From assembly GCA_963785165.1 (NCBI GenBank), contig CAWAUI010000003.1:53302-117301 (forward strand): a DNA stretch of 64,000 nt, given 5' to 3'. Each line of letters starts with the position of its first letter. Position 1 is the first letter of the stretch. The DNA comes from Thermoanaerobaculaceae bacterium. GTDB lineage: Bacteria > Acidobacteriota > Thermoanaerobaculia > Multivoradales > UBA5704. Shown here one piece after another: positions 18,770 to 64,000 of this stretch. The position numbers and the translations under genes were made by a program. Under the pieces are notes generated by a model, which was given only the letters and a program-made list of their open reading frames with translations, did not search any database and was not told the DNA's origin.

Positions 18770-18780
18770 GCGAATCGACC

Positions 18781-18815: not shown

Positions 18816-18873
18816 TTGCGCAGGTGTCACGAAGGAGGTGTCTGATGTGACTTTACCGTACAGGAGGCATTGC

Positions 18874-20560: not shown

Positions 20561-20706
20561 CCTTATAGGTTGGGGCGCCACTCCAGACCTTCGTCGGCGC
20601 GTACCGGGCTTGCGGCGGCTTCCCAATCCCGGTATAAATACGCCACCTTTCCGTGCCGCCGGTTCTCGGCGTGCCCCCTCTCCTTTTCATCCGAAGAGGA
20701 GAGGCG

Positions 20707-39888: not shown

Positions 39889-39905
39889 GCGGCGGTATAA
39901 GACGC

Positions 39906-41234: not shown

Positions 41235-41277
41235 CCCGTCCCGATGTAGGATCTTTGCCGAGGAGGATTTCACCGTC

Positions 41278-42865: not shown

Positions 42866-42886
42866 GGGACCCCCCTGTGAAGGCAT

Positions 42887-43920: not shown

Positions 43921-43930
43921 GGGGATGCTC

Positions 43931-45235
43931 CTAGTAGGTCTCATGCTTGTGCGGTCCGGCGGCCCAGGTGAGCTGGAGAGTGAAACGTTTCTCTTCACCG
44001 CCGGTCGAGCCGTCCTTGAGGAATCCGAATTCGCCGCGCAGGCGGACGAACTCGCTCTGCCAGCCAGGTAATGTTGGGGAACACGCCCCAGCGCACGTGA
44101 TCGGGGTCGAGGGGATCCTCCACCCGGTCATACCGCACGCCGCCATAAAGGTTCTGAGCGAGCAGGCCCTCCACGTAGGAGTAGCCGCCCCGGCGTCGTG
44201 GCGGGTTCCTTCCTCGTCGTCGCGCTCCGAGCGCAGCAGCTCCGTGCGCCAGGTCACCTCGCGGTACTTGGCCCGCGTGGGGGGCTGCCAGTGCAGGGTG
44301 AAGTCCGCTCCCCAAACGCGGCTCTGGCCGCCGGAGCCCTTATTTCCACCAGTACTTCCGTCGATTCCGGAAAGCCCCAGCTCCGCGTAGGTGGGGGTCC
44401 GTTCACATCCCAGAAATTCTTGAGATGGGCGAGCCCCACCAGGCGCCGGAAGCTCTCGCCGCCGAAGGCCTCGCTCTCGCCGTCCGTGAGCTGGAGGGTC
44501 AGCTCGTTGGCCGAAGCCCACGGGTGGGGGAGGAGCCAGGGAGGCGGAGAGGCCCGTCTGCGCCAGCCCTTCCTCGCCGAAGTAGGTCTGGAGGGCGAGC
44601 GGATAATCGATTTGCGGCAGGGCGTGGAGGTGGTAGCGGTTGAGCACGCCCAGCTCCTGGCGGAACTTGCCGGCGAGGTGAGCGTCAGCCCCCCGGGGAG
44701 GCCCGTGTGGGACGTTCCCCTCCCTCGATGTCCACCCCCTCCTCGGGCGAGAACGACAGCGTCCACTTGGTCAGCGAGTAGGGGTCGAGCGCGCTCTGCA
44801 CGTTCAGCTCGAACTCGCGGCCGTTGAAATCCTCCCGGCCTTGATTGGTCGCGATGCCGACGAGATCTCCGGTCATCGAGATCTCCGGGTTCAAACGGTT
44901 CAGGTTGCGCTCGTTGCCGAACGAAATCTCACCGCCAGGAGGTGTCGGTACGGGTCCGCCGGACGCGGTGGCCGTCGCTCCGGACGGCGCCTGCCCGGCG
45001 GACTCCTCGGCGGCGGCGCGCAGGGCGGCCAATTCGTCATCTTCGGTCTGTGCAGGGGTCTGAGCGGGCGTGAGCTCGGCGAGACGCTCTCTCCAACGCC
45101 GAGATGCGCTCCTCATAAGCGCTCCTCAGTCTTCGATCTCTTTTCTGAGCGTGGCGACGTCGTCCGGTCCCTGCGGTTCCTGCGCCCGCGCCAAGGGCGG
45201 GGCAGAGCAGAAGGACGACGACCGCGCATGCGCCC
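43931..45235 (-). CDS. Putative outer-membrane beta-barrel (porin-like) protein linked to the metal ABC genes; heavily frameshifted
   Basis: Fragments: coiled-coil N-terminus (RSAYEERISALERRLAELTPAQ), NLNRLNPEISMTGDLVG..., alternating beta-strand-like text, and C-terminus FTLQLTWAAGPHKHETY. The start is not resolved. Confidence 0.4.
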
Positions 45236-45805
45236 CAGGGTCCAACAACGAGTCCAATAACGGCAGCAACGGGTCCAACAACGGATCCAATAACGGGTAC
45301 CCATGGGAATCCTCTCCAAAAGCAGCCTTCCGCGCCCCAATGCGCGAAGGGTTCAGGGGGAGATCAGGCGGAGAGGAGAGAAGCCGGAGGAGCCCGCGCG
45401 GGGCCGAGGAGGGAGCTGTCCTGGGAGGAAGCGACTGTCACCGGCGCCACGGCACGGACGCCGGGCGTGAGCGGCGGGAGGGGGAGGGGAGCGGGACCGG
45501 GAACGGTCCGCGTCGCCATTTGCAGCAGGCAGGCCACGCAGCCGGGATGGACCTCCATCTCGGCGCGCTGCTCGATGTGGGCGGGATCTCCAGGGTGGAC
45601 CGCGCTCTGGGAGACCTCGACGCTCGCGGCCCCCCCCAAGCCGGTCCACCGCCATGTCGTGCGGCACCATCCCGTCGAACACCATGCCGAGGAAGGCGGC
45701 CGGCGCGGGCAGGGCGCGCCACCCGGCGATCGGTCGATGGGACGTGCGGGTTCTCATAAGGCGGTGTGCGGGGGTACTACCTCATGGTAACAGGATTTTC
45801 CGGCC

Positions 45806-46488
45806 CTACATTTCCGCCCACTGCCGGATCAAGTTGTGATAAATCCCTGTGAGCTGCACGGCCGTGGGAGCGCCGGCTTTTCACGCTCGATGCTCTGAAT
45901 GGCGGCGTCGAGGTCGAACAGCAGGGTGCGCTGGCCGTCGTCACGGATCATGCTTTGGATCCAGAAAAAGGAGCAGACGCGCGCCCCCCGGGTCACGGGG
46001 CGCACGTGGTGCAGACTGGTGGAAGGGTAGAGCACCAGGTGGCCGGCGGGGAGCTTGACGCTGTGCATGCCATAGGTGTCCTCCACCATCAGCTCGCCGC
46101 CTTCGTATTCGTCCGGACCGGTGAAGAACAGCGTCGCCGAGAGGTCCGTGCGGATGCAGGTGCGCGGCGTGCCCGGCACCTGGCGGATCGAGTTGTCCAC
46201 GTGGGTGCCGAACGACTGCCCGCCCTGGTAGCGGTTGAACAAGGGCGGGAAAATGTGCAGCGGCAGGGCAGCGGTGATGAACAGCGGGTTGCGTTGAAGG
46301 GCGGCGAGCACCATCTGCCCCAGCTCGCGCGCCGCCGGGCTCCCCTCGGGCAACTGCATGTTGTCTTTCGCCCGGGCCGACTGGTGGCCGGCGGTCACCC
46401 GGCCGTCCACCCAGTCGGTGGTGTCGAGGATCTGGCGCCCCTTCGCCACTTCCTCACCGGTCAGTACGTCGGGAATCGGTAAAAGCAT
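45806..46488 (-). CDS. Fe(II)/2-oxoglutarate-dependent hydroxylase PiuC/YbiX-like; one frameshift ~45.85 kb
   Basis: [14 protein letters not shown]...[16 protein letters not shown]...[29 protein letters not shown]. The C-terminus is restored as ...[22 protein letters not shown]-stop (stop at 45806-45808). Confidence 0.8.
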
Positions 46489-46517
46489 CGGGCGTCTCCT
46501 GGCGCGTCGTTACGTTT

Positions 46518-48961
46518 CTAGAAATTCGAACCGGTCGTCAATGCCACCGAGCGGCCGGGGCCGGGCACGAAATGCCCGCCCGACAAGCGGTCGATATACC
46601 GTTCGCCGGTGAGATTGTTGACGTTCAGCCGGAAGCTGAGGAGCTGGTTCAAGGGGTACGAGACCATGGCGTCATAGAGCGTGTAGGAAGGCGCCACGCG
46701 GATCGTCGTGGTGCTGTTCTTGCGTTCCCCCACATACTGGCCGCCGGCGCCCACCTCCACGCCCCGGGGCAGGCGGTACGTCGTCCACAGGCTGATCGAA
46801 TGGTCCGGCGTGTTGGCGAATTCGTTCCCCACTTCCACGGCGGTGTTCGACTTCGTGATTTTGCTTTTCAAGAAGGTGTAGCTGAAGGAGGTGGACCACC
46901 GCTCGGTGAGGTTGCCCGTCGGCCGACTCGAGGCCCCGGATCCGCTGCTCGCCCTGGAGCACCGTTGCCGGATCGCCGGGATTGAGGCCGGGCGTCTTGG
47001 CGTTCACCTTTTCCGTCTGGAAGACCGCCGCGGTGAGTCCTAACCGGTTGGTGGGGAAGTCCCACTTGGTCCCCAGCTCATAGCTCCGGCTCTTTTCGGG
47101 CTCGAGGTTTTCCGTGGCCGCGGTCAGGGTCAACGACGCGCCCGCTTCCGCGGAAGGATTGAACGACGTGCCGGCCGCCAGATAAATACTGCCGTTCGGC
47201 CGCGGTTTGTTGATAATGCGGCCCGCCAGCTGACCTGCTCGTCCGTGCGGCTGAACGGCGTCTTCGCCCCCCCCACGGCCACGGAGTCGAAGTCAATGCC
47301 GAAGCGGTCCCAGCGCAGGCCGCCGTTAGCCCATGTCTCGCCGAGCTTCACGGTATCGGCCACGTACACCGCGGCCGTCTCGGCGGTGCTCTCCGTCCGT
47401 GCGCCGGTGCGCGTCACCGGACCGGAGAAAGGATCCCTCGGATGGGGATCGAAAAGATCCGCATTGGGGGCGGCGGGAGCCGTGCGGGCGTGGTTTTCCG
47501 ACGTCTCTCGCGTCAGCTCGGTGCCGGCCACGAAAGCATGATCGATCGAGCCGGTGGCGAAGCGGAACGTCAGATCGTTCTGCTGCGCCACGATCGAATC
47601 GTCCTGATCGCGCGATTGGAATTCGCGGCGGATCACCGTGCTGTCCGTGCTGAGGAAACGCGGCGAGGTCGTGATCGCGTCGCGGCTCGATTCGCCGTAC
47701 CGCACGAGGCTCCGCAGCGTCACCGAGTCGTTGAAGTCGTGCTCCACCACTCCCGTGGCGATGCTGGTGACCGTTTCCTCATAGTCCCGGCTCGTGATGC
47801 CATAAAAGTTGTCGAAATCCACCGGCGCCGGCTTGTTGGCATACGCCGCCAGCGGCACGTTGGTGGCGGGCACCCAGGGGATTCCGTGATCGGGAACGTT
47901 GTCCTGCTGGAGGCGGGAGAAGGAAACCGTCGTGCGCGTGGGTGTGTCGAGGCCGAAAGCGATTGACGGCGCGATCCCCCAGCGTTCGTTCTCCACGGCG
48001 TCGCGGCCCGGAACGTCCGCGTGCGTCCACATGCCGTTGAGGCGGAACGCCGCGCCCTCGACGTTTTCGAGCGGCTGGTTCAAGTCCACCGTGGCGCGGC
48101 CGAACCGATCGGAACCGCCGGAAATGCCGGCGTCACGGAACGCATTGAGGTTCGGCGTCTTGGTGGCCAGGTTGACCGAGCCCCCCGTCGAGCCGTGCCC
48201 CACGTAGAGCGAGCCCGGCCCCTTGGCCACCTCGACCTGCTCGACGTTGAAGGGGTCCCGCGTGTACGCGCCGAAGTCGCGCACGCCGTCCACGAAAATG
48301 TCGTTCTGGGCGGCAAAACCGCGGATCGAAAGGTTGTCCCCCTGAATGCTGCCCCCCTCTCCGGCCTGAATGCTGATGCCGGTGACGTTGCGCAGCACCT
48401 CGCGCAGCGTCGTGGCGCCCCGCTGCTCGATCACGCTGTGCGGCACCACGGTGATCGACTGCGGCGTATCCCGCAAAGGCGCCGTGTATTTGGGAGACAT
48501 GGGGGCCGCGGGTGCCGTCACGTCGAGCGTTTGAGAAAGCGGCGGCAGCTCGATCATCACCGTATCGGGAGCCGTAAAGCGATAGGTCACGCCCGTGCCG
48601 GCGAGCAGCTCCTGCAAGGCTTTTTCGATCGGGAAGGTCCCCTTCACGCGGACGTTCCCAAGTCCCGGATCTCCTCGTCCGCCACCTCCACGTGCAGGCC
48701 CGTGGCCTGAGCAAATCTTTCCAAAGCCTCGCCCAGCGGTCCCCCCGGAAGATCGAAGGCGCGGGCCGGCAGCGCCGGCGCGGGGCCCGCTCCGAAATAG
48801 GACAGCGCGTTCCCCGTCTCCCGGGCTTCCGCGCTCAACGCCGGCCGCGCGCTCAATGCCGTGGAGGCCAGCGCGCCCAACACCAGCCAGCGCGGAGGCT
48901 TGCCGTTCCCGCGATGCCCGCGGTCCTTGCCCTTCCGGTGACCTTTGTCTCTCGCCTTCAT
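46518..48961 (-). CDS. TonB-dependent siderophore-type receptor with N-terminal STN signalling domain; several frameshifts
   Basis: STN domain FDLPGGPLGEALERFAQATGLHVEVADEEI.../VKGTFPIEKALQELLAGTGVTYRF. Plug TVVPHSVIEQRGATTLREVLRNVTGISIQAGEGG...IRGF. Barrel C-terminus ...ALTTGSNF. Confidence 0.8.
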
Positions 48962-50159
48962 GACAGCTCCTCCTGTTTCTTTCGAAGCCCGGCGGGGAAG
49001 AGGCGGCGCCAGGCGAGCGCGATCCCCGTCCACACCAGCACCGCCACCCCGGCGGACACCACCCCCGCCACGGCTTGGCCCGTCACACCGCCCGCCTCAC
49101 CCGTGTGAATCCACCGCGACCACGTCCGCAGCCGCCGGCCGGTACTCTGGCTCTCGTACGGCTCCCACTTTTCAATCGCACCCGTGGCGCGCTCCAGGGT
49201 GAGCTGCGCCCGCAGATCCGGCCGGCCCCCGCTGCCCACCGGGCGATCGAAAACGTCACCGGCGCCTCGGGCGAATCCGGCAGGCGCAGCGTGATGCTCC
49301 GCCACCCGGCACCTGCCGCTCGGCCACTGCCCACAGGGCGTTCAGCCCGTCGAGCACGATCTTTTCCTCGCGCTTTTCCCCAGGGCGTTCCCCGCCCCGA
49401 TTGCCTCCAGGCGGGCCTTGACGGGCCGGCGGCGGCTCCTCGCCCGCCACTCGGTACAGCAGATCGCTCGCCCAGGATACGACATGACGACGCCCGAGAC
49501 GACGATGAGCAAGAGCGGCGCCAGCGACCAGAGACCGATGACGTGGTGCCAGTTGAAATCGCGCGCCTTGCCCGGCAGGCCGCGCCGGAACCACACGACG
49601 CCTCGCAGCTACGGCCATTTCCACCGCCGCGGCCACCATAGGTAGAAGCCGGTGCCCACCAGGAACAGGAACGCGAGGTTGGAGGCGCCGGTGATCGCAC
49701 GGCCGGTGGCTCGCCACTCGCAGCTCGCACCCAGCCACCGGTGCCAGTCGGTGACGGCGTGGAAGAACCTCGCGCGTTCGGGGAGCCTTCGCCCAGAAGC
49801 TTGCCGGTGTATGGATTTACGTGGAGCGTTTGTCCGCCCCAGGCTCATCGACGCGGGCGCCGTCGGATCGGATTGGAGGGTGACCCGGGAGGGGGCGCGT
49901 CGGGGTCCCGAAGCTCCGCCGATCAGGGTTTCGACGGCAGGAGCGCCGTCGGGAGCCGGAGCTCCCTTCGTGGCAGGGAGCGACCGGTCGGCCCACGCCG
50001 TGATCTGCCGCTCGAACGTCAGCAGCACGCCCGTCACCGACATGACCAGGATGACGACGCCCGCAGTTACGCCCGCGGCCAGGTGGAGCCAGAAAATGGC
50101 GGTGCGAAAGGGGCGGGACGAGCGGCCGGCTGGACGTTCCGGTCAGGCAAGGCCGTCAT
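48958..50159 (-). CDS. PepSY-associated TM helix protein (PiuB-like); several frameshifts
   Basis: FRTAIFWLHLAAGVTAGVVILVMSVTGVLLTFERQ; FHAVTDWHRWLG; DFNWHHVIGLWSLAPLLLIVVSGVVMSYP; WSRWIHTGEAGGVTGQAVAGVVSAGVAVLVWTG. The ATG inferred at 50157-50159 needs one frame correction. Confidence 0.7.
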
Positions 50160-50453
50160 ATATACTGCTCCCGTGGTCAAACCGCCACGGCAAAGCCGGA
50201 CGGTGAAGTCCATGTCCAGGGCGGTGCCGGCCTGCTCCCCAGCGAACCCGGTATCGCCCTTTTCCTTGGCGCTGAGCCTTGTTGAGACTCAGTCTCATTT
50301 CGTTGGAAAGATCCTGGACTAAATCGGTACGGATTGTCAAGCACCAATTTTTAAGCCGGTTTCCTGTCCCCGTTTCCCCCTCCCGGCTGCACTGTTCTTA
50401 TAGACATGCGGGAAGGTCTATGGCTCTCCCGCCAACAAGGAGGAAAACGTCCC

Positions 50454-50729
50454 ATGCGCGAAAATCCCGCCCTTTTCCCGGTGAGGAAGGTCGTCCTCAC
50501 CCTGCTCCTGCTGGCCGTCGTGGCCTTCGCCCTCGCCGCCATCCAGCCCGCCGAGGCCGTCGTCATCGCCGGCCCCCACATCTGCACCTACTACAGCGAC
50601 GCGAGCCGCACCACCGCCGTCGGCGCCCGCGGCACCGGCTGCTGCAACAGCGTCATCAGTTGGGGAGTCACCTCGCCGTACAGCCGCTGCGAGCGGCTCT
50701 ACTGCCCCGACGTGATCTGCCCGGACTAA
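50454..50729 (+). CDS. Small secreted Cys-rich protein (91 aa, 6 Cys in the mature part)
   Basis: RBS AAGGAGG 7 nt before the ATG. Signal peptide VVLTLLLLAVVAFALAAIQPAEA. Mature part VVIAGPHICTYYSDASRTTAVGARGTGCCNSVISWGVTSPYSRCERLYCPDVICPD. Confidence 0.65.
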   Translation: MRENPALFPVRKVVLTLLLLAVVAFALAAIQPAEAVVIAGPHICTYYSDASRTTAVGARGTGCCNSVISWGVTSPYSRCERLYCPDVICPD

Positions 50730-50746
50730 AGGCAGTCTCGTAAAGG

Positions 50747-50786
50747 CCGCCCTCGCCAGGGATTTCAATCCCTGGCGAGGGGCGGG
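50747..50786 (+). terminator. Strong hairpin downstream of the Cys-rich gene (terminator candidate, weak T-tract)
   Basis: ccgccctcgccaggga-tttcaa-tccctggcgaggggcgg (16/17-bp stem). Same TTTCAA loop as the hairpins in the 38.1-38.5 kb element. Confidence 0.45.
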
Positions 50787-50881
50787 ACCGGACATTTATG
50801 AGACCGCGTCTAGCCCCCTAGCTCCAAGACCTCCGCCCCGTCTCTTCGTTCCCCCAAAACGCCCGCCCTGGGATCGTCCGC

Positions 50882-50910
50882 TTGACACACTGTGTGAGAC
50901 ACAGTACTAT
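50882..50910 (+). promoter_or_regulatory. Consensus-like promoter with an embedded palindromic operator
   Basis: TTGACA (50882-50887), a 17-nt spacer, then TACTAT (50905-50910). The spacer contains ACTGTGT-gag-ACACAGT, a perfect 7-bp inverted repeat. The ATG at 50918 lies about 8 nt after the -10 element. Confidence 0.5.
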
Positions 50911-50917
50911 GCGCGGC

Positions 50918-51253
50918 ATGGGTGACACGGACGCTTTCAACGAATTGAAGATCGAGCTGCGGCGCGGGGTGGTGGTGTTGGCCACCCTCTCCCAGCTGCG
51001 CGCTCCACGCTACGGCTACGAGCTGCGCCAGGCGCTGGCGGACCAGGGAATGCCGATCGAAGAGGGCACCCTCTATCCGTTGCTGCGCCGGCTGGAAACA
51101 CAGGGCTTGCTGAACAGTGAGTGGAAGATCGAGGACGGACCCCCGCGGCGGTACTACTCCCTGAACGCGGACGGCCAAAAATTGCTCGAGAAGCTCACCG
51201 CGGCCTGGCGGGCCCTGAACGGCGCCATGAACCGACTCTTGAAGGAGGACTGA
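50918..51253 (+). CDS. PadR-family transcriptional regulator
   Basis: LRRGVVVLATLSQLRAPRYGYELRQALADQGMPIEEGTLYPLLRRLETQGLLNSEWKIEDGPPRRYYSLNADGQKLL. In-frame alternative starts at 50882 and 50909. Confidence 0.85.
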   Translation: MGDTDAFNELKIELRRGVVVLATLSQLRAPRYGYELRQALADQGMPIEEGTLYPLLRRLETQGLLNSEWKIEDGPPRRYYSLNADGQKLLEKLTAAWRALNGAMNRLLKED

Positions 51254-51259
51254 CTGACC

Positions 51260-51826
51260 ATGAACGCGAACGACGTGATCGAATCCTACGTCACCGACGT
51301 CGCCGTGCGGTTGCCGCGCAAGCAGCGCAACGACGTGGCGTTTGAATTGCGGGCCCTGCTCAACGAAGGCTTGCAGGACAAAGCCGCCGCCGCCGGCCGC
51401 CCCGCCGACGCCGACGACCCCGCAATCGCCACCGAGTTTCTGCGGGCCTTCGGGCGGCCCGAGGACGTCGCCGCGCGCTACCGCCCCACGCTGACGATCA
51501 TCGACCCCGCGGACGGCCCCAAATTCCTGCGGGCGGCCGTCATCGGCCTCGCGTTGATCTGGTCTCTGGGTCTGTTCGCGTGCCTGCAGCAACCCATCCA
51601 TTCCGCGGACGACCTGATCCGCGCCCTGACCCCAGTGGTGGGGAAGCATCGTCATTCCCTCCCCCTGGTGGCCCGGCGTGCTCGTCGTGTGGTTCGGCCT
51701 GGCCTCCTGGTCGCGCCGCCGCCGGCCGCAAACCGGCGCCGGCTGGAAGCCGCGCGCGGGCGACCACCTCCAAGGCGGCCGCACCGCCTCGGCCCTGGGG
51801 CTCGCCGGCGTCCTCTGCGCGGTGGT
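51260..51826 (+). CDS. PadR-associated membrane protein (DUF1700/HAAS-like N-terminus), frameshifted and 3'-truncated by the junction
   Basis: [38 protein letters not shown]..., then TM segments [21 protein letters not shown] and (another frame) [15 protein letters not shown]...[11 protein letters not shown]. The sequence then switches to GDH. Confidence 0.6.
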
Positions 51827-53989
51827 GCACCCGGACGGCGTGGTGATCCGCGACGGCGACGATCCCTATTTCGTCGTCGCCGCCGACAAGGGCACCGCGA
51901 CCTTCTCCGACATCGCCAACGCGATCGCGCTCGAGCGCGGACTTCTGGCTCGGCGACGCCTTCGCCAGCGGCGGCTCGAACGGCTACGACCACAAGGCGA
52001 TGGGCATCACCGCGCAGGGCGCGTGGCTCTCGGTCCAGCGCCACTTCCTCGAAATGGGCATCGACGTGCAGAACGAGCCGATCACGCGTCGCCGGCTGCG
52101 GCGACATGTCGGGCGACGTGTTCGGCAACGGCATGCTGCTGTCGAAGGCGATCAAGCTGGTCGCGGCGTTCGACCATCGCCACATCTTCCTCGATCCCGA
52201 TCCCGATCCGGCGACGAGCTGGGACGAGCGCGACGCGCCTGTTCGCGCTGCCGCGCTCGAGCTGGGACGATTATGACGCGACGCTGATCTCGAAGGGCGG
52301 CGGCATCTTCCCGCGCAGCCAGAAGAGCGATCCCGCTGATCGCCGCAGATGCGCGGCGATGCTCGGCATCGACGGACGAGACGATCGATCCGGCCGCGCT
52401 GATCACCGCGATCCTGCAAGGCGCCGGTCGACCTGCTCTGGTTCGGCGGCATCGGCACCTATGTGAAGGCCGCGGCGCGAGAGCAACGCCGAGGTCGGCG
52501 ATCCCGCCAACGACGCGCTGCGCGTCAATGCCGAGGAGCTGCGCGCCAAGGTGATCGGCGAAGGCGCCAATCTGGGCATCACCCAGGCCGGCGCGCATCG
52601 AGTTCGCGCTGGCGCGGCGGGCGGATCAACACCGACTTCATCGACAATTCGGCCGGCGTCGATTGCTCGGACAATGAGGTCAACATCAAGATCGCGCTCA
52701 ACCGCGAGATGACGCGACGGGCGGCTGTCGCTCGAGCGACCGCAACGCGCTGCTCGCCGCGATGACCGACGACGTCGCCGCGCTGGTGCTCGAGGACAAC
52801 CGCCTGCAGACGCTGGCGCTGTCGATCGCCGAGCGCGGCGGCGCGCGCGGCCTGCCGAGCTACGTCCGCGCTGATCGAGATGCTCGAGGAGCAGCGGCCA
52901 GCTCGACCGCGCGGTCGAGGGGCTGGCGCGCAACGAGGAGCTGCTGCGCCGCGCGCAGGACGGCCAGGGCCTGACCCGGCCCGAACTCGCGGTGCTGCTG
53001 TCGACCGCCAAGCTGGCGCTGCAGGACGCGATCGAGGCACGGCGAGCTGGCCGACGATCCGACGCTGGACGCCGAGCTGCTCGCCGCCTTCCCGGCGCGC
53101 GATGCAGGCGCAGGCATCGCGACGCGATCGCCGAGCCACCGGCTGCGCCGCGAGATCATCGCCACCAAGCTCGCCAACCGCATCGTCAACCGGCTCGGCC
53201 TGATCCATCCGTTCGAACTGGCCGAGGAGGAAGGCGCGCGCTTCGGCGACAGGTCGCCGCGCCTTCGTCGCCGCCGAGCGCCTGTTCGACATGGGCACGC
53301 TGTGGCGCCGAGATCGACGCGGCGGAGATGCCGGAGGGCGCCGGCTCGCGCTGTTCGAAGAGATCGGCGGCGCCATGCGGGCTGCACATCGCCGATCCTC
53401 CTGCGCGTACACGCCGGCGAGCCGACGCCCGGCGAGATCGGTGCGCGACTCTCAAGCCCGGCCTCGACAAGCTCGACGCGGCGTCGACAATCTGCTGACC
53501 GAACCGCGCCGCCCGCGGCCGCGGCCATGGAGCGACGATCTGGACGACGCTGGGCGCGCCGCGGATCGCTGGCACGACCGCGATCGTCGCAGCTGTTCGA
53601 GCTGGACGGCGCGATCGGCATCGCCGACCTTGGCCGCAGCTCCGTCGGGACGAGGTCGAGCTGACCGGCGCGCTATCGTCCGTCTCGGCGAGGCGCTCGG
53701 CCTCGACTGGGCGCAGGCGCGCGGCTATCCCGGTTGCAGCCGCGCGACCCGTGGGAGCGGCTGCTGCACCGCCGGCCTCGCCGCGATATTCGAGCAGCTG
53801 CGGCTCGATTTCCTCGACGCGGCAAGGGCGGCGAGCGATCCGGTCGAGCGGTCGACAACATGGGTCGAGACGCACAGCGCCCGCGGATCGACCAGTTCCG
53901 CCGCATCACTCGAACGCGCCGCGCGCCTCGCCGATGCCGACGGCGCCGATGCTGGCCCAGATCTGCTGGCGCAGGTGCGCGACGTCTGA
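51826..53989 (+). pseudogene. gdhB: NAD-specific glutamate dehydrogenase (large Bac_GDH type), internal-to-C-terminal fragment only, many frameshifts
   Basis: [23 protein letters not shown]...[25 protein letters not shown]...[39 protein letters not shown]...RINTDFIDNSAGVDCSDNEVNIKIAL...REIIATKLANRIVNRLG. There is no N-terminal half and no start codon. Confidence 0.85.
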
Positions 53990-54010
53990 TGGACGCGCGT
54001 GAGGCTCGAG

Positions 54011-54298
54011 TCACGCTTCCCCGGCGAGATAGGCAGGCGATCCACCAACCAGGCGAGCGGATCTGCGCTGGCGCCAGGTTCTGCGGGCGGGCTGATCGCC
54101 GCTCGCAGCCGACCCGAGCCGGCGGATTGGCCGCGAGCTTCGATCGATCCGCGCGACCAGCGCGTTGAGCGGCAACGCCCTCCTCCGCCGCCGCGCGCAG
54201 CAGCGCATCCCAGAACAGCGGCTCGAGGCTGATCGAGGTCTCGTGCCCGGCGATCTCACCGAGCGCTTGACCGGGCCCCCTGGAACCAGCGCCGATCG
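54011..54298 (-). CDS. Small ribbon-helix-helix (RHH_4-like) protein; frameshifted, ends approximate
   Basis: IAGHETSISLEPLFWDALLRAAAEEG..LPLNALVARIDRS, typical of the alphaproteobacterial GH.TS.SLE..FW family. Confidence 0.45.
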   Translation of the reverse strand, partial: RSALVPGGPVKRSVRSPGTRPRSASSRCSGMRCCARRRRRALPLNALVARIDRSSRPIRRLGSAASGDQPARRTWRQRRSARLVGGSPAYLAGEA

Positions 54299-54301
54299 GG
54301 C

Positions 54302-55029
54302 TCAATACATATGCTGCCCGCCGTTGATCGACATGCGTCGATCCGGTGACGAAGCCGGCATCCTCCGACGCACAGGAACGCGACGCCGCGCGCGATCTCC
54401 TCGGCCTGGCCGAGCCGGCCGACCGGGATCTTGGCGACGATCTTTTCCAGCACGTCGGCGCGGCACCGCGGCGACCATGTCGGTGTCGATATAGCCCGGC
54501 GCGATCGCGTTGACGGTCACGCCGAACTTGCGCGCCTTCCTGCGCCAGCGCCTTGGTGAAGCCGTGGATGCCCGATTTGGCGGCGGCATAGTTGACCTGG
54601 CCGTATTGCCCGGCCTGGCCGTTGATCGAGCCGATGTTGACGATCCGGCCCCAGCCGCGCTCGCGCATGCCGGGGAAGGTCGCCTTGGCCATGTTGAAGC
54701 AGCCGCCGAGATTGATGTCGATCACCTCGTTCCAGTCCTCGAAGTTCATCCTCTTCATCGTGCCGTCGCGGGTGATGCCGGCATTGTTGACCAGCGACGT
54801 CGACCGGGCCGAGCTCGCTCTCGACCTGCGCGCAGCCGTCGAGGCAGGCCTCGTGGTCGGCGACGTCCCATTTGTACGCCGGGATGCCGGTGCGCTCGGT
54901 GAAGGCCGCGCGCCTCCGTCATTGCCGGCATAGTTGGCGGCGACGGTCATGCCCCGCATCCTGCAGCGCGAGGCTGATCGCCTCGCCGATGCCGCGCGTT
55001 CCGCCGGTGACGATTGCAACCCGTGCCAT
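54302..55029 (-). CDS. phbB: Acetoacetyl-CoA reductase (SDR); at least 6 frame changes
   Basis: MARVAIVTGGTRGIGEAISLAL...LVNNAGITRDGTMKRMNFEDWNEVIDINLGGCFN...NIGSINGQAGQYGQVNYAAAKSGIHGFTKALAQEGA/KFGVTVNAIAPGYIDTDMV/LEKIVAKIPVGRLGQAEEIA/SEDAGFVTGST/MSINGGQHMY. Confidence 0.85.
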
Positions 55030-55049
55030 GCATCCTCTCCTCATTGTGC

Positions 55050-56108
55050 TTATCGCGGACGGCTTAGCGCGCGCGGCACCCAGCCTGCAAGTTCGCGCGC
55101 CGACAAGCGTTCGCAGCATCGCCATGCCCGCGCGCGCTGTCGTTGAGGCAGGGCAGATAGGCGAAATGCGTTGCCGCCCGCCTCGAGGAAGGTCTCGCGC
55201 CCGCGGATCGCCAGCTCCTCCAGCGTCTCCAGGCAATCGGCGGAAAAGCCGGGCGCGACGATCGCGAGCTCGCGTCACGCCCTCGCGCCGGCAGCGCGGC
55301 CAGCGTCGCGTCGGTCGCGGGCTCGAGCCATTTGGCGCGGCCGAAGCGCGACTGGAAGGCGATCGTCCAGCTCGCGCGGCCCAGCGCCTCGGCCAGCAGC
55401 CGCGCGGTCTTCTGGCACTGGCAGTGATAGGGATCGCCCAGCTCGCAGCGTCCGCTCGCGGCATGCCGTGGAAGCTGGCGAGCAGCGCATCGGGCACGAA
55501 ATCGAGCGCCGCCGAGCGCCGTCTCGACGATCGGCCTTCAGCGCGTCGATATAGGCGGGATCGTCGTGATAGGGCGGCAGCGTGCGCATCGCCGGCTGCC
55601 AGCGCATCGTCGCGCAGATGCGGCGAACGCCGCATCGTTCGCGGTCGCGGTCGTCGCCGCGCAATATTGCGGATAGAGCGGCGCGAGCAGGATGCGCTCG
55701 CAGCCCCGCCGCCTTCATCGCCGTCGAGCCGGTCGGCGATCGCCGGCTTGCCATAGCGCATCGCCTAATCGACGATCACGCCCATCGCCGAACGCGCCTG
55801 CAGCGCCGCCGCCTGGCGCGGCGGTGATCGCGGCGAGCGGCGAGCCTTCGCTCGGTCCACACCTGGCGCATAGGCATGCGCCGACTTCTTCGGCCGGGTG
55901 TTGAGGATGATGCCGCGCAGGATCGGCTGCCAGAGCGAGCGGCGGAATTTCGACGACGCGCCGATCGGACAGGAATTCGCGCCAGATAGCGCTTCACCGC
56001 GGCGGCGTCGGGCGCGTCGGGCGTGCCGAGGTTGACCAGCAGCACGCCGATGCGCGGCGCAGGGATCGGGGGATGATCGGCGGGACGGTCGGGCAGGGCG
56101 GGGCTCAT
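55050..56108 (-). CDS. hemH: Ferrochelatase; many frameshifts
   Basis: [26 protein letters not shown]...; [13 protein letters not shown]; SFHGMP...; the C-terminus ...ARELAGWV is recoverable in a third frame. Confidence 0.8.
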
Positions 56109-56124
56109 GCGATGCGGGTCTCTT

Positions 56125-58383
56125 TCAGGCCGGGGCGATCAGCGGCAGGGTGCGAAAGCGCTGGCCGGTGACGGTGAAGAGCGCGTTGGCGATGGCCGGG
56201 GCGACCGCGGGAACGCCGATCTCTTCCGGCCCGCCGGGCTCCGCGACGCTTGCGATGAATTCGACCGTCACCGGCCGATGTCGGCAAGGCGGGGCAGGCC
56301 CATGCGGCCCAGATCGCGCGCTCGGGCAGGCCGCGCGCATAGTCCGCCGCGCCGCCCAGCGCGGAGGCGAGGCCGAAGACCAGCCCGCCCTCGATCTGTT
56401 GCCGGGCGATGTCCGGATGACGCTGCGCGCCGAGATCGACGACGGCGACGATGTTCTTCGCGCGGATGCCGTTCTGTCCCAGCCCGCCTCCGCCAGTCAC
56501 GGCGATGTACCGCCGTCCATCGCGTGGCACGCCAGAGCCCTGGCCGCTGCCCATCGACGCCGCCCTGCCAGCCGCCCATCGCCGCAGCCGTCGACAGGCA
56601 ATGGGCGAGGCGCGGCTGCCCGCCCAGCATGCTGGATGCGGAAGGACAGCGGTTCGATCTTCGCCTGATGCGCCAGCTCGTCGATGAAGCATTCGGTGAA
56701 GAAGGCGGCGTAGCTGTCGGCATTGCCGCGCCAGCGCCCGATCGGCAGGTCGAGCGTCGACGGGATAATGATCGATCGCCAGATGGGGGATGGCATAAGG
56801 CGGCATCACGCCGGCAACGGCGCGTGCATCGGCGCTGCGCCCGTCGGCCGCGCGCGGCGCGAAGGCCGACTGCCCGTGGAAATCCGGTCCCAGCTCTGGC
56901 GGTCGGCGGACGGCGCGGCGATCTTCGCCGACCAGCCGTCGATACGCCCGCCCGGCAGCAGCTTCGCCGCCATCCGCGCCCGGCGGGCGGGCGAGGGCGA
57001 TCGGCGACGATATCCTCCAGCCGCGACCAGATCAGCTGCACCGGCCGCCCGACCGCCCGCGCGATCAGCGCCGCCTGCACGGCGGGTTCATGATCGAAGC
57101 GCCGGTCGAACGACCCGCCGCCGGCACCGGATAGAGCAAGACGTCCGCCTCGCTCATCCCCAGCGCCTCGGCCACGGCGGCGCGGCAGAAGGCGGGCGCC
57201 TAGGCTCGCCACCCAGATCTTCGCGCGCGACCGTCGGCAACGCGCGCGGTGGCGCAGGGTGTCTCGATCGCCAGATGCAGCGCCGGGGCGACGTCATAGT
57301 CGGCGCGCAATACGCGCGCGCCCGAGAAGCTGGCGGCAAGATCGCCCAGCGCGTCGAACCGGCGGCCCGCATCCCCGGCGAACGCCGCGCGCAGCGCCGC
57401 GTCGATGGCGCCAGTATCGAGCGGCTCTCCGTCAAGCTCGAACACCGGATCGAGCGCGTCGAGCGCCTTGTTCGCCGCCCACCAGTTGGTGGCGACCGCC
57501 GCGACCCAGCGTCCTGCCGGACCAGCCGGACGAAGCCGGGCACCTTCTTTGCCGCTGCCTCCTTGACCGATTCGAGGCGGACGGCGCCGACCGGCCCCTG
57601 ACGGATCGAGGCGAACACCATGTCGGGCAGGCGAATGTCCGCGGCATAGTTGAGCGTGCCGTCGACCTTGGACGGCAGGTCCAGCCGGGGCACGTCCTGC
57701 CCGATCAGCCGGTCCTCGCGTCCTTCCGGCGCTCCGGCAGCACATCGGGCAGGGTGAAGTTCCGCGGCCTCCGCCGCCAGTTCGCCGATGCGCAGCGTGC
57801 GTCGTCCATCGGTGACAAGGCCACCGACAATGTCGCAGCTCTCCCATTCGACGTCCCAGCGCGCCGCCGCCGCCTTGCACAGCAGCACGCGCGCCGCCGC
57901 GCCCGCCGTCCGATAGCTGTCGCCGAACTTGCGCAGCGCGGTCGCGCCGCCGGTCAGCATCATCGCGTGGCAGGTCGCATATTCGCGCATCGCCCAGTCG
58001 CCCGCGACGGTCGCCCAGCCGTCTTCCATAAATTCACGGGCGAGCAGCTGGTTGGCATAGAGCGGGCTGACCGGTGCGCCCTGCACCGCGACCGTGCGCC
58101 AGTCGGCGCCGAGTTCATCGGCAAGGATCTGCGGCAGCACGGTGGTTATGCCCTGCCCCATCTCCAGCTGCGGCACGACGACGATGATCTGTCCGGCAGT
58201 GTCGATCTTCAGGAACGCGTTGATCAGCGTCTCATTCTCGCCGACCGCAAGATTGGGCGATAGCTGCGCGGCCAGAGCCCCCACGCGATGAAGCAGGCCC
58301 GCCGCCGCGCCGCCGCCGATCAGCAGCGTGCGCCGATCGACCGCCACCTTCTGAAAATCGCGCTTGTCGGGGGATCGCTTCAT
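56125..58383 (-). CDS. Molybdopterin-binding aldehyde oxidase/xanthine dehydrogenase-family subunit (IorB-like) with Tat signal; many frameshifts
   Basis: MKRSPDKRDFQKVAVDRRTLLIGGGAAAGL (twin-Arg). VVVPQLEMGQGITTVLPQILADELGADW. IGQDVPRLDLPSKVDGTLNYAADIRLPDMVFASIRQGP. C-terminus VPAVAPAIANALFTVTGQRFRTLPL. Confidence 0.75.
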
Positions 58384-58460
58384 GCCTGAGCTTTGATAGC
58401 GGGCGGCGCGATCAAAGGCAAAGGCGGAAATAGAGCGCCCCGGTTCAGGCGGCTTCTGGT

Positions 58461-58882
58461 TCAGGCGGCGGGAGCAAGGCCGAGCCGCGGAATCTCGATC
58501 GCGGGGCAGCGGTCCATCACCACCTTGAGGCCCGCCGCCTCGGCGCGCGCTGCCGCCTCCTCGTTGATCACGCCGAGCTGCATCCACACCGCCTTGGCGC
58601 CGACCGCGATCGCCTCGTCGACCGCCTCGCCCGCTGCGGCGCGCGCGGAAGATGTCGACCATGTCGATCGGCTCGCCGATCTCGGCAAGCGTCGCGCGAC
58701 AGAATTCGCCGTGGACATGCTCGCCGGTGAGCTGCGGATTGACCGGGATCACGCGATAGCCGTGCGACCTGCAGCATCTTCATCACGCCGTAGCTCGGCC
58801 GGTCGGCCGGTCGGACGCGCCGACCATCGCGATGGTGCGCGGTTGAGCAGCGCGGCGATATCCTCGTCGCGGGTCAGCGGCA
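58461..58882 (-). CDS. CoA-binding domain protein (YccU/YneT-like); frameshifted
   Basis: [13 protein letters not shown]...PSYGVMKML...[37 protein letters not shown]...[44 protein letters not shown]. Confidence 0.75.
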
Positions 58883-58944
58883 TGGCGCATCTCCTTCCCC
58901 GTCAAATGGGGGCAGGACGACGCTTCGTCAACCCATGGCACGGA

Positions 58945-59919
58945 TTACCGCGCGTCGATCCACTCCTTCACGCGCGCGGGCGATGGCGGGAAAGGCTGCC
59001 GCCTCGGCCCGTCGCCGGCGGCCGGGGGCGTGCCCGCGTCCGACGCCGCGCGGATCGCCGATGGCGAGCGGGATGCGGCCGAGGAACGGCATGCCCATCG
59101 CCGTCGCCGCCGCCTCGGCGCCGCCGATGCCGAACGGATCGCTGATCTCGCCGCAATGCGGGCAGGCATAGCCCGCCATGTTCTCGACCAGGCCGATCAT
59201 CGGCACGCCGGCCTGCTCGAACAGGTCGATCGCGCGGCGTCGCGTCGATCAGCGCCAGATCCTGCGGCGTCGAGACGATCACCGCGCCGGCGGGCTTGAG
59301 CTTCTGGATCATCGTCAGCTGGACGTCGCCGGTGCCGGGCGGCAGGTCGACGATCAGCATCTCGGCATCGCCCCAGTCGGCGTCGATCAGCTGGCCCAGC
59401 GCATTGCCGGCCATCGGCCCGCGCCAGGCGATCGCCTTGCCCGGCTCGACCAGATGGCCCATCGACAGCATCGGCACGCCGTAGCGCGCTGGGCACCGGG
59501 ATCAGCTTCTTGTCCTCGCGCTGCGGGCTTGTGCCCTCGCTGGCCAGCAGGCGCGGCTGCGACGGGCCGTAGATGTCGGCATCGACCAGGCCGACCTGCC
59601 GCCCGAGCCGCGCCAGCGCGACCGCGAGATTGGCCGACAGCGTCGATTTGCCGACGCCGCCCTTGCCGCTGCCGACCGCGATCAGCGCGAGCTCCTGCTT
59701 CTCGGCGGTCAACGGCGACGCGCACCTCGCTGCACGCCCGGCACTCGTCAGCGCCTCGGCCTCGACCCGATCGCGCAGCGGCGGCCGTTCGCGCCGCGGC
59801 CGAGCCCGGTCACGTCGAGCACCATGCTGAGCCACGCCCTCGCGCAATCGCACGCGCGCTGACGCGGCCGGAAGAACAGGCTACTGCGGCGCGTCGGCAA
59901 GCGTGTCACTGTCTGTCAT
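58945..59919 (-). CDS. mrp: Mrp/ApbC-family Fe-S cluster carrier ATPase; many frameshifts
   Basis: [41 protein letters not shown]...[17 protein letters not shown]...[16 protein letters not shown]...[14 protein letters not shown]...[22 protein letters not shown]. Confidence 0.85.
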
Positions 59920-60061
59920 GGGCGGCCGCCAGATAGGCGAATAACGTGGCACATGGCACTGTTTTTCCCCGACCAGCGTTCCTATAAAGTGGCATGAACG
60001 CAAAATGACGCCGACCGCGTTTCGCCGCCTCCTGTCCATCCTCTCCGCACCGGTCCTGACA

Positions 60062-61176
60062 ATGGCCAAGGCCCGTGGGGCAGGGAACCCGATGACGACG
60101 GCGGTGAAAAGCCGCAGCGATGGCACGTCCGGCGGGCCGCGCAACCCCTGGCGCAGCCGCCACGCGGCGGCGGGCAGCAGCCCGGCGGACAGGGGCCGCG
60201 CGGCCGACGCGCTCGACGACCTGCTTCGCGCGGCCGCGAGCGGCTTTGGCGGCGGCGGCGGTGGCGGCGGCCGGGCGGCGGCCTTCCCGGGCGCGCAGGC
60301 GCGCGCGCTCTGGCCGATCGGGCTGCCATCGTCGCGATCCTGTGGCTGCTGTTCACCTGCTTCCACCGGATCGGCCCGCAGGAGCGCGGCGTCGTCACCT
60401 CACCTCGGCAAATATAGCCGCACGCTCGAGCCGGGCATCGGCCTCACCCTGCCCTCGCCGATCGAGCGCGTGCGAGATGGTCGACGTGCGAGAATATCCG
60501 CACCATCGACATCGGCCCGACAGCGGCGGCGCGGAGAATCTGATGCTGACCGGCGACCAGAACATCATCGATCTCGCCTATTCGGTGCGCTGGAACATCC
60601 GCGATCCGCGAGCTCTACCTGTTCCAGCTCGCCGAGCCCGAAGACACGATCCGCGAGGTCGCCGAAAGCGCGATGCGCGCGGTCGTCGCCGACGCGTATC
60701 GCTCGACCGATGCGATCGGCGCCGGCCGCGGCCGAGATCGAGCAGCAGGTCGCAGCAGCGGATGCAGGAGATCCTCGACGCCTATCGGTCGCGGCGTGCG
60801 GATCCAGGGCGTCGCGATCAAGCAGGCCGATCCGCCCGCGGCGGTCGAACGACGCCTTCAAGGACGTGACCGCCGCGCAGCAGGAGGCGCAGTCGCGACA
60901 TCAACCAGGCGCGCGCCTATGCGCAGCAGCTCACCGCGCGCGCGCAGGGCGAGGCCGCCGCGTTCGACAAGGTCTACGAGCAGTACCGGCTCGCGCCCGA
61001 GGTGACCCGGCGGCGCATGTATTACGAGACGATGGAGGCGGTGCTGCCGAGACGTCGACAAGACGATCGTCGAGGCGCCGGGCGTGACGCCCTATCTGCC
61101 GCTGCCGGAAGTGCAGCGCCGGACGCGCGCGGCCGCGGCCGCCGCCGGCGCACGCCAGCGAGGGAGCCGCCGATGA
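60062..61176 (+). CDS. hflK: HflK (SPFH/band-7) membrane protease modulator; many frameshifts
   Basis: GGPRNPW...; poly-Gly; LGKYSRTLEPGIGLTLPSPIERV; ENLMLTGDQNIIDLAYSVRWNIRDP; IREVAESAMRAVV; IKQADPPAAV.DAFKDVTAAQQEAQS; EAAAFDKVYEQYRLAPEVTRRRMYYETMEAVL. Confidence 0.8.
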
Positions 61177-62045
61177 TGCCGAGCCGTCTGTCCGCAACCC
61201 GATCGGCGCTCGGCGCTCGCTCGCGCTGGCGCTCGTCATCCTGCTCGGCAGCACCTTCGCGATCGTGCCGGAAACCAAGCAGGCGGTGATCGTCCGCTTC
61301 GGCGAGCCGAGTCCGGATCGATCAACCGCTATCACGCCGAACGAGACGTTCGGCCAGCACCGGCGCCGGCCTCGTCGCGCGCATCCCGTTCGTCGAGCAG
61401 ATCGTCTGGATCGACAAGCGCGTGCGTCGATCGACATGGAGCGCCAGCAGGTGCTGTCGACCGACCAGCTGCGGCTGGAGGTCGATGCCTTTGCGCGCTA
61501 CCGCATCGTCGATCCGCTGCGCATGTACATCGCCGGCCGGCACCGAGGAACGCGTGACCGACGCAGCTGCGCCCGATCCTCGGCTCGGCGCTGCGCAACG
61601 AGCTCGGCAAGCGGCCGTTCGCGGCGCTGCTCAGCCCCGAGCGCGGCCAGGTGATGGACAATATCCAGACCGGCGCTCAACCGCGTCGCGCGCCAATATG
61701 GCGCGCGAGATCATCGACGTGCGGATCAAGCGCGCCGACCTGCCCGACGGCACGCCGCTGCGAAAGCGCGCTTCAAGCGGATGCGCACCGCGCGCCAGCA
61801 GGAGGCGCGCACGATCCGCGCCGCAGGGCCAGAAGCAGGCGCAGATCATCCGCGCCGAGGCCGATGCCGAGGCCGCGCAGATCTATGCCGCGAGCTTCGG
61901 CAAGGATCCGGAATTCTACGATTTCTACCGCGCGATGCAGTCCTATCGGCACACCTTCGGCGCCGATGGCGAGCGGACCGGACGGACGACGTCGATCATC
62001 CTGTCGCCGGACAACGACTATCTGCGCGAGTTCCGGGGGCGCTAG
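61173..62045 (+). CDS. hflC: HflC (SPFH/band-7); frameshifted
   Basis: FAIVPETKQAVIVRFGEP...; IDMERQQVLSTDQLRLEVDAFARYRIVDPLRMY; LRNELGKRPFAALLSPERGQVMDNI; IIDVRIKRADLPDG; QAQIIRAEADAEAAQIYAASFGKDPEFYDFYRAMQSY...LSPDNDYLREFRG. Confidence 0.85.
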
Positions 62046-62151
62046 GCGCTGAGCGCCGACGTGCGATCGATTCAATCAGCCGTTCAGTGCGGTCAAGCTG
62101 CCATGCAGGCCGGATCGTGCGATGAGACGCTCGCCTGATCGGATCGATGAC

Positions 62152-63752: not shown

Positions 63753-63853
63753 CCGCGCAGTGTCCGCCAGCGCCGTCTTTGACCCTGTCGTCGGCCTTTC
63801 CACGGCGGCGGCAGGGGTAGGTATCGCGTCGAGCGAGCGAAGACGGGAGCGGC

Positions 63854-64000
63854 ATGATGGCGAGACGGCATCTTCATCGGCGCGAGCGGCGGCGGCGAAC
63901 CGCAGACGCTCGAACCTGCAGACGCGCCAACCGCCACGGGCTGATCGCCGGCGCGACCGGCACCGGCAAGACCGTGACGCTGCAGGGCATCGCCGAGGGT
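63854..64000 (+). CDS. DUF853/HerA-like P-loop ATPase (YjgR family), 5' end only, frameshifted
   Basis: IFIGAS...L.PADA..NRHGLIAGATGTGKTVTLQGIAEG (Walker A) running to the window edge. Confidence 0.6.
   Translation, partial: MMARRHLHRRERRRRTADARTCRRANRHGLIAGATGTGKTVTLQGIAEG

Follow-up and report, generated by a model that had tools for sequence, protein, structure and literature searches.

A probable technical chimera of Thermoanaerobaculia and Sphingomonadales DNA in a deposited contig

The contig from which our window was drawn (the window being the whole stretch of 64,000 nucleotides analyzed here) is, we conclude with high confidence, a technical chimera, in which DNA of a Thermoanaerobaculia population (positions 1 to 51,819) runs directly into that of an unrelated and apparently less deeply covered Sphingomonadales population (51,821 to 64,000). 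The observations behind this conclusion are a blunt breakpoint, two truncated genes, and a simultaneous switch in taxonomy, oligonucleotide composition, and consensus error. A lower read depth on the right side and clipping of reads are suggested by the step in error rate, for which frameshift density served as a surrogate. The junction would accordingly be expected in no cell.

A first-pass annotation of this DNA had proposed either a chimeric assembly join or an artificial concatenation, rather than biology. Our results support a chimeric join of nonbiological origin, while artificial concatenation is excluded by the record of the deposited contig. A public protein collection includes a 338-amino-acid (aa) open reading frame (ORF) that spans the junction and assigns it to one contig of 122,635 bases (NCBI and ENA), and genes from both sides, including the 114-aa product of a PadR-family regulator gene, are recorded on a contig of that length. 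The join was thus already present in the assembly as deposited.

Position and composition of the junction

The breakpoint lies at 51819 to 51821. In our alignments, the match to the acidobacterial reference stops after base 51819, and similarity to sphingomonad glutamate dehydrogenase genes (gdh) most often starts at 51821, which leaves at most one base (the C at 51820) unassigned. The abrupt passage from one gene into the other, with neither a stop codon nor a spacer, had been described in the first-pass annotation and is confirmed by an ORF at 51678 to 52466 that reads straight through. Both genes are truncated mid-domain at the breakpoint, the kind of arbitrary gene cut by which chimeric contigs are recognized, and neither the missing half of the membrane-protein gene on the left nor that of gdh on the right was found within the 64-kb window. 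Around the join, we found no adapter or linker, no meaningful flanking direct or inverted repeats, and no target-site duplication, and at the join itself there was no mobile-element or recombination signature and no integrase. The sequence common to the two sides at this point amounts to 0 to 2 bases; with no meaningful repeats nearby, a repeat-mediated misjoin was ruled out. The 54-mer across the junction had no match in JGI metagenome contigs.

Gene-level taxonomy changes from Thermoanaerobaculia to Sphingomonadales within 51819 to 51821, and the oligonucleotide signature changes at the same point, both of which are marks of a chimeric contig. Tetranucleotide profiling of the two sides had been suggested as a check; when this was done, the profile switched at the junction, with a single global change point at 51,850. 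Local divergence there was 0.071, or 3.3 times the window median of 0.022, the 95th percentile being 0.041. The change in oligonucleotide texture noticed earlier is evident in the motif counts: from left to right, GATC rises from 7.5 to 13.8 per kb and CGATCG rises from 0.64 to 3.2 per kb, and GANTC falls from 2.6 to 0.74 per kb. GC content barely shifts (0.68 versus 0.71), and a GC plot alone would therefore miss the chimera. The change-point scan detected one such junction in the 64-kb window, which contains no N bases.

Across the junction, the reading frame of the one gene passes in phase into that of the other, as it would in a genuine fusion gene encoding a membrane-anchored catalytic fragment of glutamate dehydrogenase. 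We give this reading almost no credence. A match in phase is a one-in-three chance and is meaningless here, and frameshifts interrupt the frame on either side, at 51632 (190 bases before the join) and at 51939 (120 bases after it), with about 30 more beyond that. The dehydrogenase part begins at position 167 of the 497 positions of the Bac_GDH_CD profile, inside the catalytic domain, and no protein with such an architecture was seen among the membrane protein's relatives (more than 900) or those of the dehydrogenase (thousands).

The abrupt compositional and taxonomic boundary resembles that of genomic islands and other foreign DNA inserted at tRNA genes, and ARAGORN called a 98-base tRNA-Pro at 51713 to 51810 on the minus strand, 10 bases from the join. 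We rejected this call as an integration site because Rfam reported no tRNA there even at an E value of ≤10 and because the call lies inside coding sequence that is conserved in hundreds of homologues; its orientation is also wrong for integration at a 3′ end. The features by which a horizontal island is recognized are a tRNA gene or att site, an integrase or transposase, direct repeats, and a cargo of complete genes. Unlike tRNA-gene islands, the window join lacks an Rfam-supported tRNA, an integrase, and direct repeats, and what follows it is core chromosome starting mid-gene.

The Thermoanaerobaculia side

Positions 1 to 50908 form the left partner, a chromosome segment of Thermoanaerobaculia type, as indicated by a uniform tetranucleotide profile, the relatives of an acyl-CoA ligase, synteny, and a match to contig_24218 of ENA assembly ERZ25039597. 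The first-pass annotation had called this side acidobacterial, and we agree: the best named relatives of the ligase (16164 to 17987, minus strand) are from Thermoanaerobaculia, at 90% identity, and eight left-side genes are syntenic with the Thermoanaerobaculia metagenome-assembled genome (MAG) GCA_035940855.1.

The last two genes before the join are on the plus strand. An intact PadR-family regulator gene (50909 to 51253; Pfam PadR, E = 5.6e-21) is followed by the 5′ part of a PadR-linked membrane-protein gene (51260 to 51819), which covers residues 1 to 187 of 322 and is 99% identical to its counterpart on contig_24218, the 322-aa protein P0001. This part has no stop codon before the cut and one +1 frameshift near 51632. 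Its match to the Pfam HAAS family is weak, at 23.5 bits, below the curated cut-off of 27. Among PadR-linked membrane proteins (HAAS-domain neighbours), the same gene pair in the same order occurs in hundreds of metagenomic relatives, from which the window copy differs in lacking the C-terminal 135 residues; in P0001, the protein runs on (...GVLCGLSVLLNPRW...) for that distance past the cut point. The 90% cluster of the PadR protein includes a member on a reference contig of 149,930 bases.

Positions 41277 to 51819 of the window are 98.2% identical to contig_24218 (locus L081), and the alignment ends exactly at 51819. Beyond its intact membrane-protein gene, contig_24218 carries an integrase fragment, a C1 peptidase gene, an IS21 istB gene, a reverse transcriptase gene, and a TIR gene, and it has no similarity to the window from 51820 onward. 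According to the first-pass annotation, a single contiguous reference matching both halves would have argued against a chimera. No such reference was found, and the near-identical left-side reference continues differently. An independent assembly without the join is thus shown on the left by contig_24218; on the right, the absence of the join is seen in order-level references alone (80 loci, with gdh full length in the ten whose frame was measured).

The sphingomonad side

Immediately after the join, 51821 to 53980 (plus strand) hold roughly the final 710 codons (the 3′ part) of a sphingomonad gene for the large NAD-specific glutamate dehydrogenase, with matches to Pfam Bac_GDH_CD (E = 1.1e-172) and GDH_C. 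Its extent was set by frameshift-aware alignment to the dehydrogenase proteins of two sphingomonad loci, L069 and L034, which covers 51822 to 53963, and by blastn to two others, L048 and L024, which reaches 53979. The fragment represents the C-terminal ~45% of the gene and contains 32 to 34 frameshifts. It aligns to residues 886 to 1350 of the 1,611-aa NAD-glutamate dehydrogenase of M. smegmatis (7a1d). This alignment and the point of entry into the Pfam profile bear out the earlier observation that the gene is entered in the middle, with its N-terminal half absent. A full Bac_GDH protein is encoded by a single open frame of ~1,550 to 1,610 aa, in which regulatory domains at the N terminus accompany an entire catalytic domain. 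The window fragment is clearly orthologous to the C-terminal part of such proteins (the catalytic domain from profile position 167, plus the C-terminal domain), but it differs from them in its length and in its roughly 32 frameshifts. It is not a functional gene, and it provides no evidence for a naturally short form.

Nucleotide similarity to 80 Sphingomonadales gdh loci begins between 51809 and 51852, most commonly at 51821 (37 alignments), and the window left of 51809 has no match in any of them. In the ten sphingomonad loci for which the frame was measured, gdh is always full length, with an open frame of 1,544 to 1,795 aa, of which 833 to 1,084 residues lie upstream of the junction point. 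All of the best gdh loci are from Sphingomonadales, at 74 to 80% amino acid identity, in keeping with the alphaproteobacterial origin first proposed for this side. The closest relative stands at ~80% amino acid identity, and the sphingomonad side lacks a near-identical reference of the kind available for the left.

The genes downstream of gdh are colinear with reference genomes in a conserved sphingomonad order (gdh, an RHH_4 gene, a phbB-like reductase gene, hemH, a molybdopterin oxidoreductase gene, and mrp), and this side is ordinary sphingomonad core chromosome. The five genes that follow gdh in this order are on the minus strand and frameshifted. The small ribbon-helix-helix gene (54096 to 54290) was recognized from a hand-joined translation (Pfam RHH_4, E = 1.3e-11), and its stretch from 54144 to 54278, between gdh and phbB, is 80 to 84% conserved in many sphingomonad loci. 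The phbB-like short-chain reductase gene (54305 to 55029; 7 frameshifts) encodes a protein with 85 to 86% amino acid identity to orthologues in loci L004 and L024, and the reference protein matches Pfam adh_short. The ferrochelatase gene, hemH (55068 to 56290; ~17 frameshifts), shows 74% identity to the L024 orthologue, with a reference protein that matches Pfam Ferrochelatase at an E value of 2e-107. The molybdopterin-binding, IorB-like oxidoreductase gene (56134 to 58681) has at least 14 to 19 frameshifts; matches to Pfam MoCoBD_1 and MoCoBD_2 were found both on the reference protein and on fragments from the window. A gene for a P-loop ATPase of the Mrp/NUBPL type (58948 to 59973) has ~9 frameshifts. 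The rest of the segment (59974 to 64000) retains the right-side tetranucleotide profile and a low codon periodicity to the window end and includes a fragment of a trypsin-like protease of DegP type (62616 to 63305; Pfam Trypsin_2). The window is thus still of sphingomonad type at position 64,000, with no second boundary up to there.

The first-pass annotation had also described a sharp difference in indel density. We measured 0.6 frameshifts per kb at 4 to 18 kb, 2.7 at 41 to 52 kb, and ~11 at 52 to 60 kb, and codon periodicity halves at the join. These counts come from frameshift-aware dynamic-programming alignment; a tblastn-based count was discarded because it was swamped by the shadow ORFs typical of high-GC DNA. 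The left side is itself uneven in its frameshift rate (0.6 versus 2.7 per kb), and its genes show the same type of error as those on the right, at a lower rate.

The right-side frameshifts bear on whether the junction could be real, that is, whether a soil member of the Thermoanaerobaculia took 12 kb or more of core chromosome from a sphingomonad into its membrane-protein gene by illegitimate recombination, the insert now decaying or the transfer being very recent and preceding any adaptation. The join does sit in a deposited contig, frameshifts are what decaying genes accumulate, and the remainder of the disrupted gene might be found past base 64,000; even so, we regard a real junction as very improbable. 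Decaying genes should have gathered numerous substitutions and nonsense codons, whereas in 7.66 kb we counted 85 frameshifts, mostly +1 (one-base insertions), against 1 in-frame stop in 2,495 codons, and identity to orthologues is still 74 to 86% once the proteins are corrected. Given this ratio of stops to frameshifts, pseudogene decay was rejected as their source. Randomly placed one-base indels with a bias to insertion resemble read errors, and they are shared with the left-side genes. The frameshifts thus fit sequencing error rather than gene decay. In oligonucleotide usage, the right side is entirely of sphingomonad type and shows no drift toward the host pattern. Also counting against a real insertion are the lack of an integrase, tRNA, repeat, or target duplication at the join, a cargo of core housekeeping genes that starts mid-gene, and the existence of a 98.2%-identical relative without the insert.

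Route of the join and its consequences

If the join is technical, it may have arisen in the assembler or downstream of it. In the latter case, two separate contigs, one ending inside the membrane-protein gene and the other beginning inside gdh, could have been fused with no intervening N at a later step (scaffolding, bin merging, or submission processing), which would still be an artefact. Two contig ends would look just like this, meeting bluntly without common sequence and cutting genes arbitrarily; the difference in error rate is compatible with contigs of unequal depth; and the mobile and defence island that starts ~0.6 kb past the membrane-protein gene in contig_24218 is a typical site for a contig to break. 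In public records, however, contigs are usually deposited separately or gaps are shown as N, and no N occurs in the window; the gene table treats the sequence as one contig of 122,635 bases, and a single such junction is detectable in 64 kb. We therefore consider pasting after assembly improbable.

For a chimera formed during assembly, the join cannot be put down to overlapping or repeated sequence in the assembly graph, because the two sides have no more than 0 to 2 bases in common there. It is more likely that the assembler let through a long read that was itself chimeric or extended the tip of a contig wrongly. Frame-breaking indels at ~1% on the right, near the quality of a single read, suggest that very few reads would have supported that side. 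Contigs that merge different phyla have been reported for metaFlye, metaMDBG, and hifiasm-meta (bioRxiv 10.1101/2025.04.22.649783). Those interphylum chimeras show the same sudden shift in gene-level taxonomy, composition, and depth, the last represented here by consensus error rate; they were defined by read clipping and coverage, whereas our case is defined by sequence markers.

The join is of no biological importance and serves as a warning about data quality. The contig is present in NCBI and ENA, is probably part of a MAG, and holds at least 12 kb from another phylum. Protein databases already list its predicted proteins, among them a product of 338 residues that crosses the junction and dozens of fragments created by frameshifts. 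Contigs of this kind make horizontal transfer look more frequent than it is, introduce contamination into taxonomic and pangenome analyses, and give rise to spurious "novel" protein clusters. Where reads are not at hand, a chimera of this kind can be located to a few tens of bases from its tetranucleotide profile and frameshift density, and its breakpoint can be fixed to the base by aligning the contig with related genomes.

Position of the junction and the genes it cuts

A membrane-protein gene starts at 51260 (+), immediately downstream of a gene for a PadR regulator (50909-51253, + strand; Pfam PadR, E 5.6e-21), and makes up the upstream part of the junction frame; the downstream part encodes the catalytic core of NAD-glutamate dehydrogenase (GDH) in its large bacterial form. 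The frame from 51678, read over 50 residues, crosses the junction without a stop codon or spacer, as the first-pass annotation had described for a membrane protein running into GDH. Window positions 41277-51819 align to bases 1-10559 of a left-side reference, L081 (ENA ERZ25039597 contig_24218, 149,930 bases), at 98.2% identity, and the alignment ends at 51819. Past this base, L081 reads GGCTCTCCGTG..., encoding ...GVLCGLSVLLNPRW... plus 135 further residues, whereas the window reads CGGTGGTGCACCCGGAC. After repair, the membrane protein is 99% identical in a protein search to its 322-residue counterpart on L081 (P0001) across the 188 residues present.

We compared the right side with 80 Sphingomonadales gdh loci, each with a 10-kb flank. 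Matches to the window began at 51809-51852, most commonly at 51821 (37 alignments), and from base 51821 the window agrees with ...AAG GTG GTG CAC CC... of the sphingomonad reference sequences. Left of 51809-51852 there were no matches to any of the 80 loci, although these include the whole 5' half of gdh. The end of the L081 alignment and the starts of the sphingomonad matches bracket the breakpoint at 51819-51821, leaving no more than one base unassigned. The join is a blunt union of two unrelated genomes: no adapter or linker was present at the breakpoint, and no direct or inverted repeats were found flanking it. Elsewhere in the window, we found neither the 135-residue C terminus of the membrane protein, nor the N-terminal half of GDH, nor the 10.4 kb of L081 beyond the breakpoint.

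The GDH family was said to be entered partway, with its N-terminal half missing, and this is what we found. A hand-joined 464-residue translation matched Pfam Bac_GDH_CD (E 1.1e-172) only from profile position 167 of 497, and in the Mycobacterium smegmatis enzyme (7a1d; 1,611 residues) the aligned stretch was residues 886-1350. The gdh open frame in ten measured sphingomonad genomes spans 1,544-1,795 residues, 833-1,084 of them upstream of the breakpoint; the window therefore carries approximately the last 45% of gdh. The 120 best GDH matches from the protein search (P0121-P0240) were all 507-810 residues long, versus open frames of ~1,550-1,600 residues at genomic gdh loci. Three of them (P0122, P0131, and P0230; 773-777 aa, on contigs of 29, 504, and 514 kb) have a common internal methionine start (MKAQRVKNAVIVP...). 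These short matches may reflect split gene calls or index ranking of long proteins.

Frameshifts 190 bases before the join and 120 bases after it rule out a functional fusion protein. ARAGORN called a 98-base tRNA-Pro(TGG) at 51713-51810 (-), ending 10 bases from the junction; Rfam returned no tRNA there even at E ≤ 10, and the call, which sits within conserved membrane-protein coding sequence, is probably a spurious hit in GC-rich coding DNA.

Taxonomy and composition of the two sides

The left side is from the Thermoanaerobaculia (Acidobacteriota). The best named relatives of its acyl-CoA ligase (16164-17987, -) are Thermoanaerobaculia, at 90% identity, and its gene order at 4.4-18 kb matches that of the Thermoanaerobaculia MAG GCA_035940855.1 for eight consecutive genes (82-91% amino acid identity), bearing out the acidobacterial label of the first-pass annotation. 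Further genes encode FadB, a zf-HC2 anti-sigma factor, ankyrin-repeat proteins, a TonB-dependent receptor, a PepSY_TM protein, and, judged by domain matches, an apparent RNA-repair pair at 32415-38104 (+) comprising Hen1 (Hen1_L plus methyltransferase, E 6e-108) and Pnkp (PNKP ligase domain, E 2.5e-108). Two neighboring genes of ~440 residues with C-terminal ankyrin repeats (38551-41234, +) may be tandem paralogues. A 745-residue protein (29960-32197, -) carries both multihaem cytochrome motifs (MtrC/MtrF-like, cytochrome c7) and domains of the bacterial Ig and cadherin-like types.

Several left-side stretches depart from their surroundings or references. The ~3.9 kb separating the FadB gene from its next syntenic neighbor (9974-13841), which includes a BNR/Asp-box repeat protein, is missing from the MAG locus and is thus a strain- or lineage-specific insertion. 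A possible small island inside the left genome lies at 18000-21000: GC content there is 0.61-0.63 versus ~0.69, local tetranucleotide divergence peaks on either side (17.8 and 20.8 kb), and the stretch codes for a 592-residue TPR protein. Within the PepSY_TM gene, ~550 bases (49450-50000; ~8180-8740 in L081) diverge by ~15%, mostly through substitutions, and hold 82 of the 186 differences in an alignment that is elsewhere 98-100% identical; this looks like a strain-level recombination tract rather than sequencing error.

The right side is from the Sphingomonadales, in agreement with the alphaproteobacterial origin first proposed. All of the best gdh loci belong to this order (74-80% amino acid identity), and sphingomonad gene order is kept to at least 59.7 kb: gdh, a small RHH_4 gene, a phbB-like reductase, ferrochelatase, a molybdopterin-binding oxidoreductase, and a Mrp-type ATPase. 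The segment is ordinary core chromosome rather than a mobile element. The ribbon-helix-helix (RHH_4) gene, located between gdh and the phbB-like gene (54096-54290, -), is conserved across many sphingomonad loci (L069 12602-12736 and others) at a nucleotide identity of 80-84%.

GC content hardly shifts (0.681 left, 0.708 right). Tetranucleotide profiles correlate at 0.94-0.98 with the left profile up to ~49 kb and at 0.98-0.99 with the right profile from 51 kb. The best single change point across the 64 kb is 51,850, where local divergence reaches the window maximum of 0.071 (median, 0.022; 95th percentile, 0.041). The reported downstream enrichment of GATC and CGATCG was recovered, with densities rising from 7.5 to 13.8 and from 0.64 to 3.2 per kb. 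GANTC falls from 2.6 per kb (observed/expected, 0.88) to 0.74 per kb (observed/expected, 0.28); low GANTC is typical of Alphaproteobacteria with the CcrM methyltransferase.

Error profile and origin of the join

Frameshift-aware protein-to-DNA alignment on both sides of the join confirmed a sharp difference in indel density: 0.6 frameshifts per kb at 4.4-18 kb against the MAG locus (6 in 9.4 kb) and 2.7 per kb at 41.3-51.8 kb against L081 (26 in 9.46 kb), versus 11 per kb over five right-side genes against sphingomonad loci (85 in 7.66 kb) and ~15 per kb in the gdh fragment against L069 and L034 (32-34 in 2.14 kb). Codon-position GC periodicity, which is reference free, drops from ~0.3 to ~0.14 at the breakpoint. 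The left side is itself uneven in frameshift rate, and its codon periodicity falls at ~18 kb; the acidobacterial part may already contain variation in depth or strain heterogeneity.

Right-side frameshifts were predominantly one-base insertions (54 +1, 20 -1, and 11 +2), with only one in-frame stop in 2,495 aligned codons after frame correction. Given that mutational decay is expected to produce several substitutions, nonsense included, per indel, this pattern is unlike decay; the pure ~1% indel load looks like poorly covered long-read consensus. A genuine cross-phylum insertion that later decayed is therefore very improbable: besides the misfitting indel-to-nonsense ratio, left-side genes show the same error type at a lower rate, the right-side signature shows no host adaptation, the join lacks boundary features, and the insert is missing from a relative with 98.2% identity. 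The best reading of an error step exactly where composition and taxonomy switch is a change in read depth, and hence two populations of unequal abundance.

With a blunt breakpoint at which taxonomy, composition, and error rate all switch, the feature is nonbiological, and the chimeric join favored by the first-pass annotation is supported. Its other suggestion, that the concatenation was made artificially when the window was prepared, is ruled out. The 338-residue ORF spanning the junction (51260-52273) is a singleton in the public protein collection, on one 122,635-base contig (NCBI, ENA), and the records of the left-side PadR and acyl-CoA ligase and of three right-side ORFs each give a contig of equal length, so the deposited contig already bore the junction before the window was cut. 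Spacer-free pasting of two contigs after assembly, likewise an artifact, would look the same in sequence, but we consider it unlikely.

An assembly-graph repeat or overlap cannot account for the join, since the two sides have no sequence in common there. The more likely route would be a chimeric read, or a contig tip wrongly extended on very few reads. Past the membrane-protein gene, L081 carries an integrase fragment, a C1 peptidase, IS21 IstB, a reverse transcriptase, and a TIR-domain gene (11587-18442), and this mobile/defense island is a plausible place for this population's assemblies to break. The Flye-style name of this near-identical contig (contig_24218) is only a hint at data type. 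Interphylum contigs are a documented error of metaFlye, metaMDBG, and hifiasm-meta and can be spotted where composition, coverage, and gene-level taxonomy shift (bioRxiv 10.1101/2025.04.22.649783). The practical value of the junction is as a warning about a contaminated public contig; otherwise, it is of low interest.
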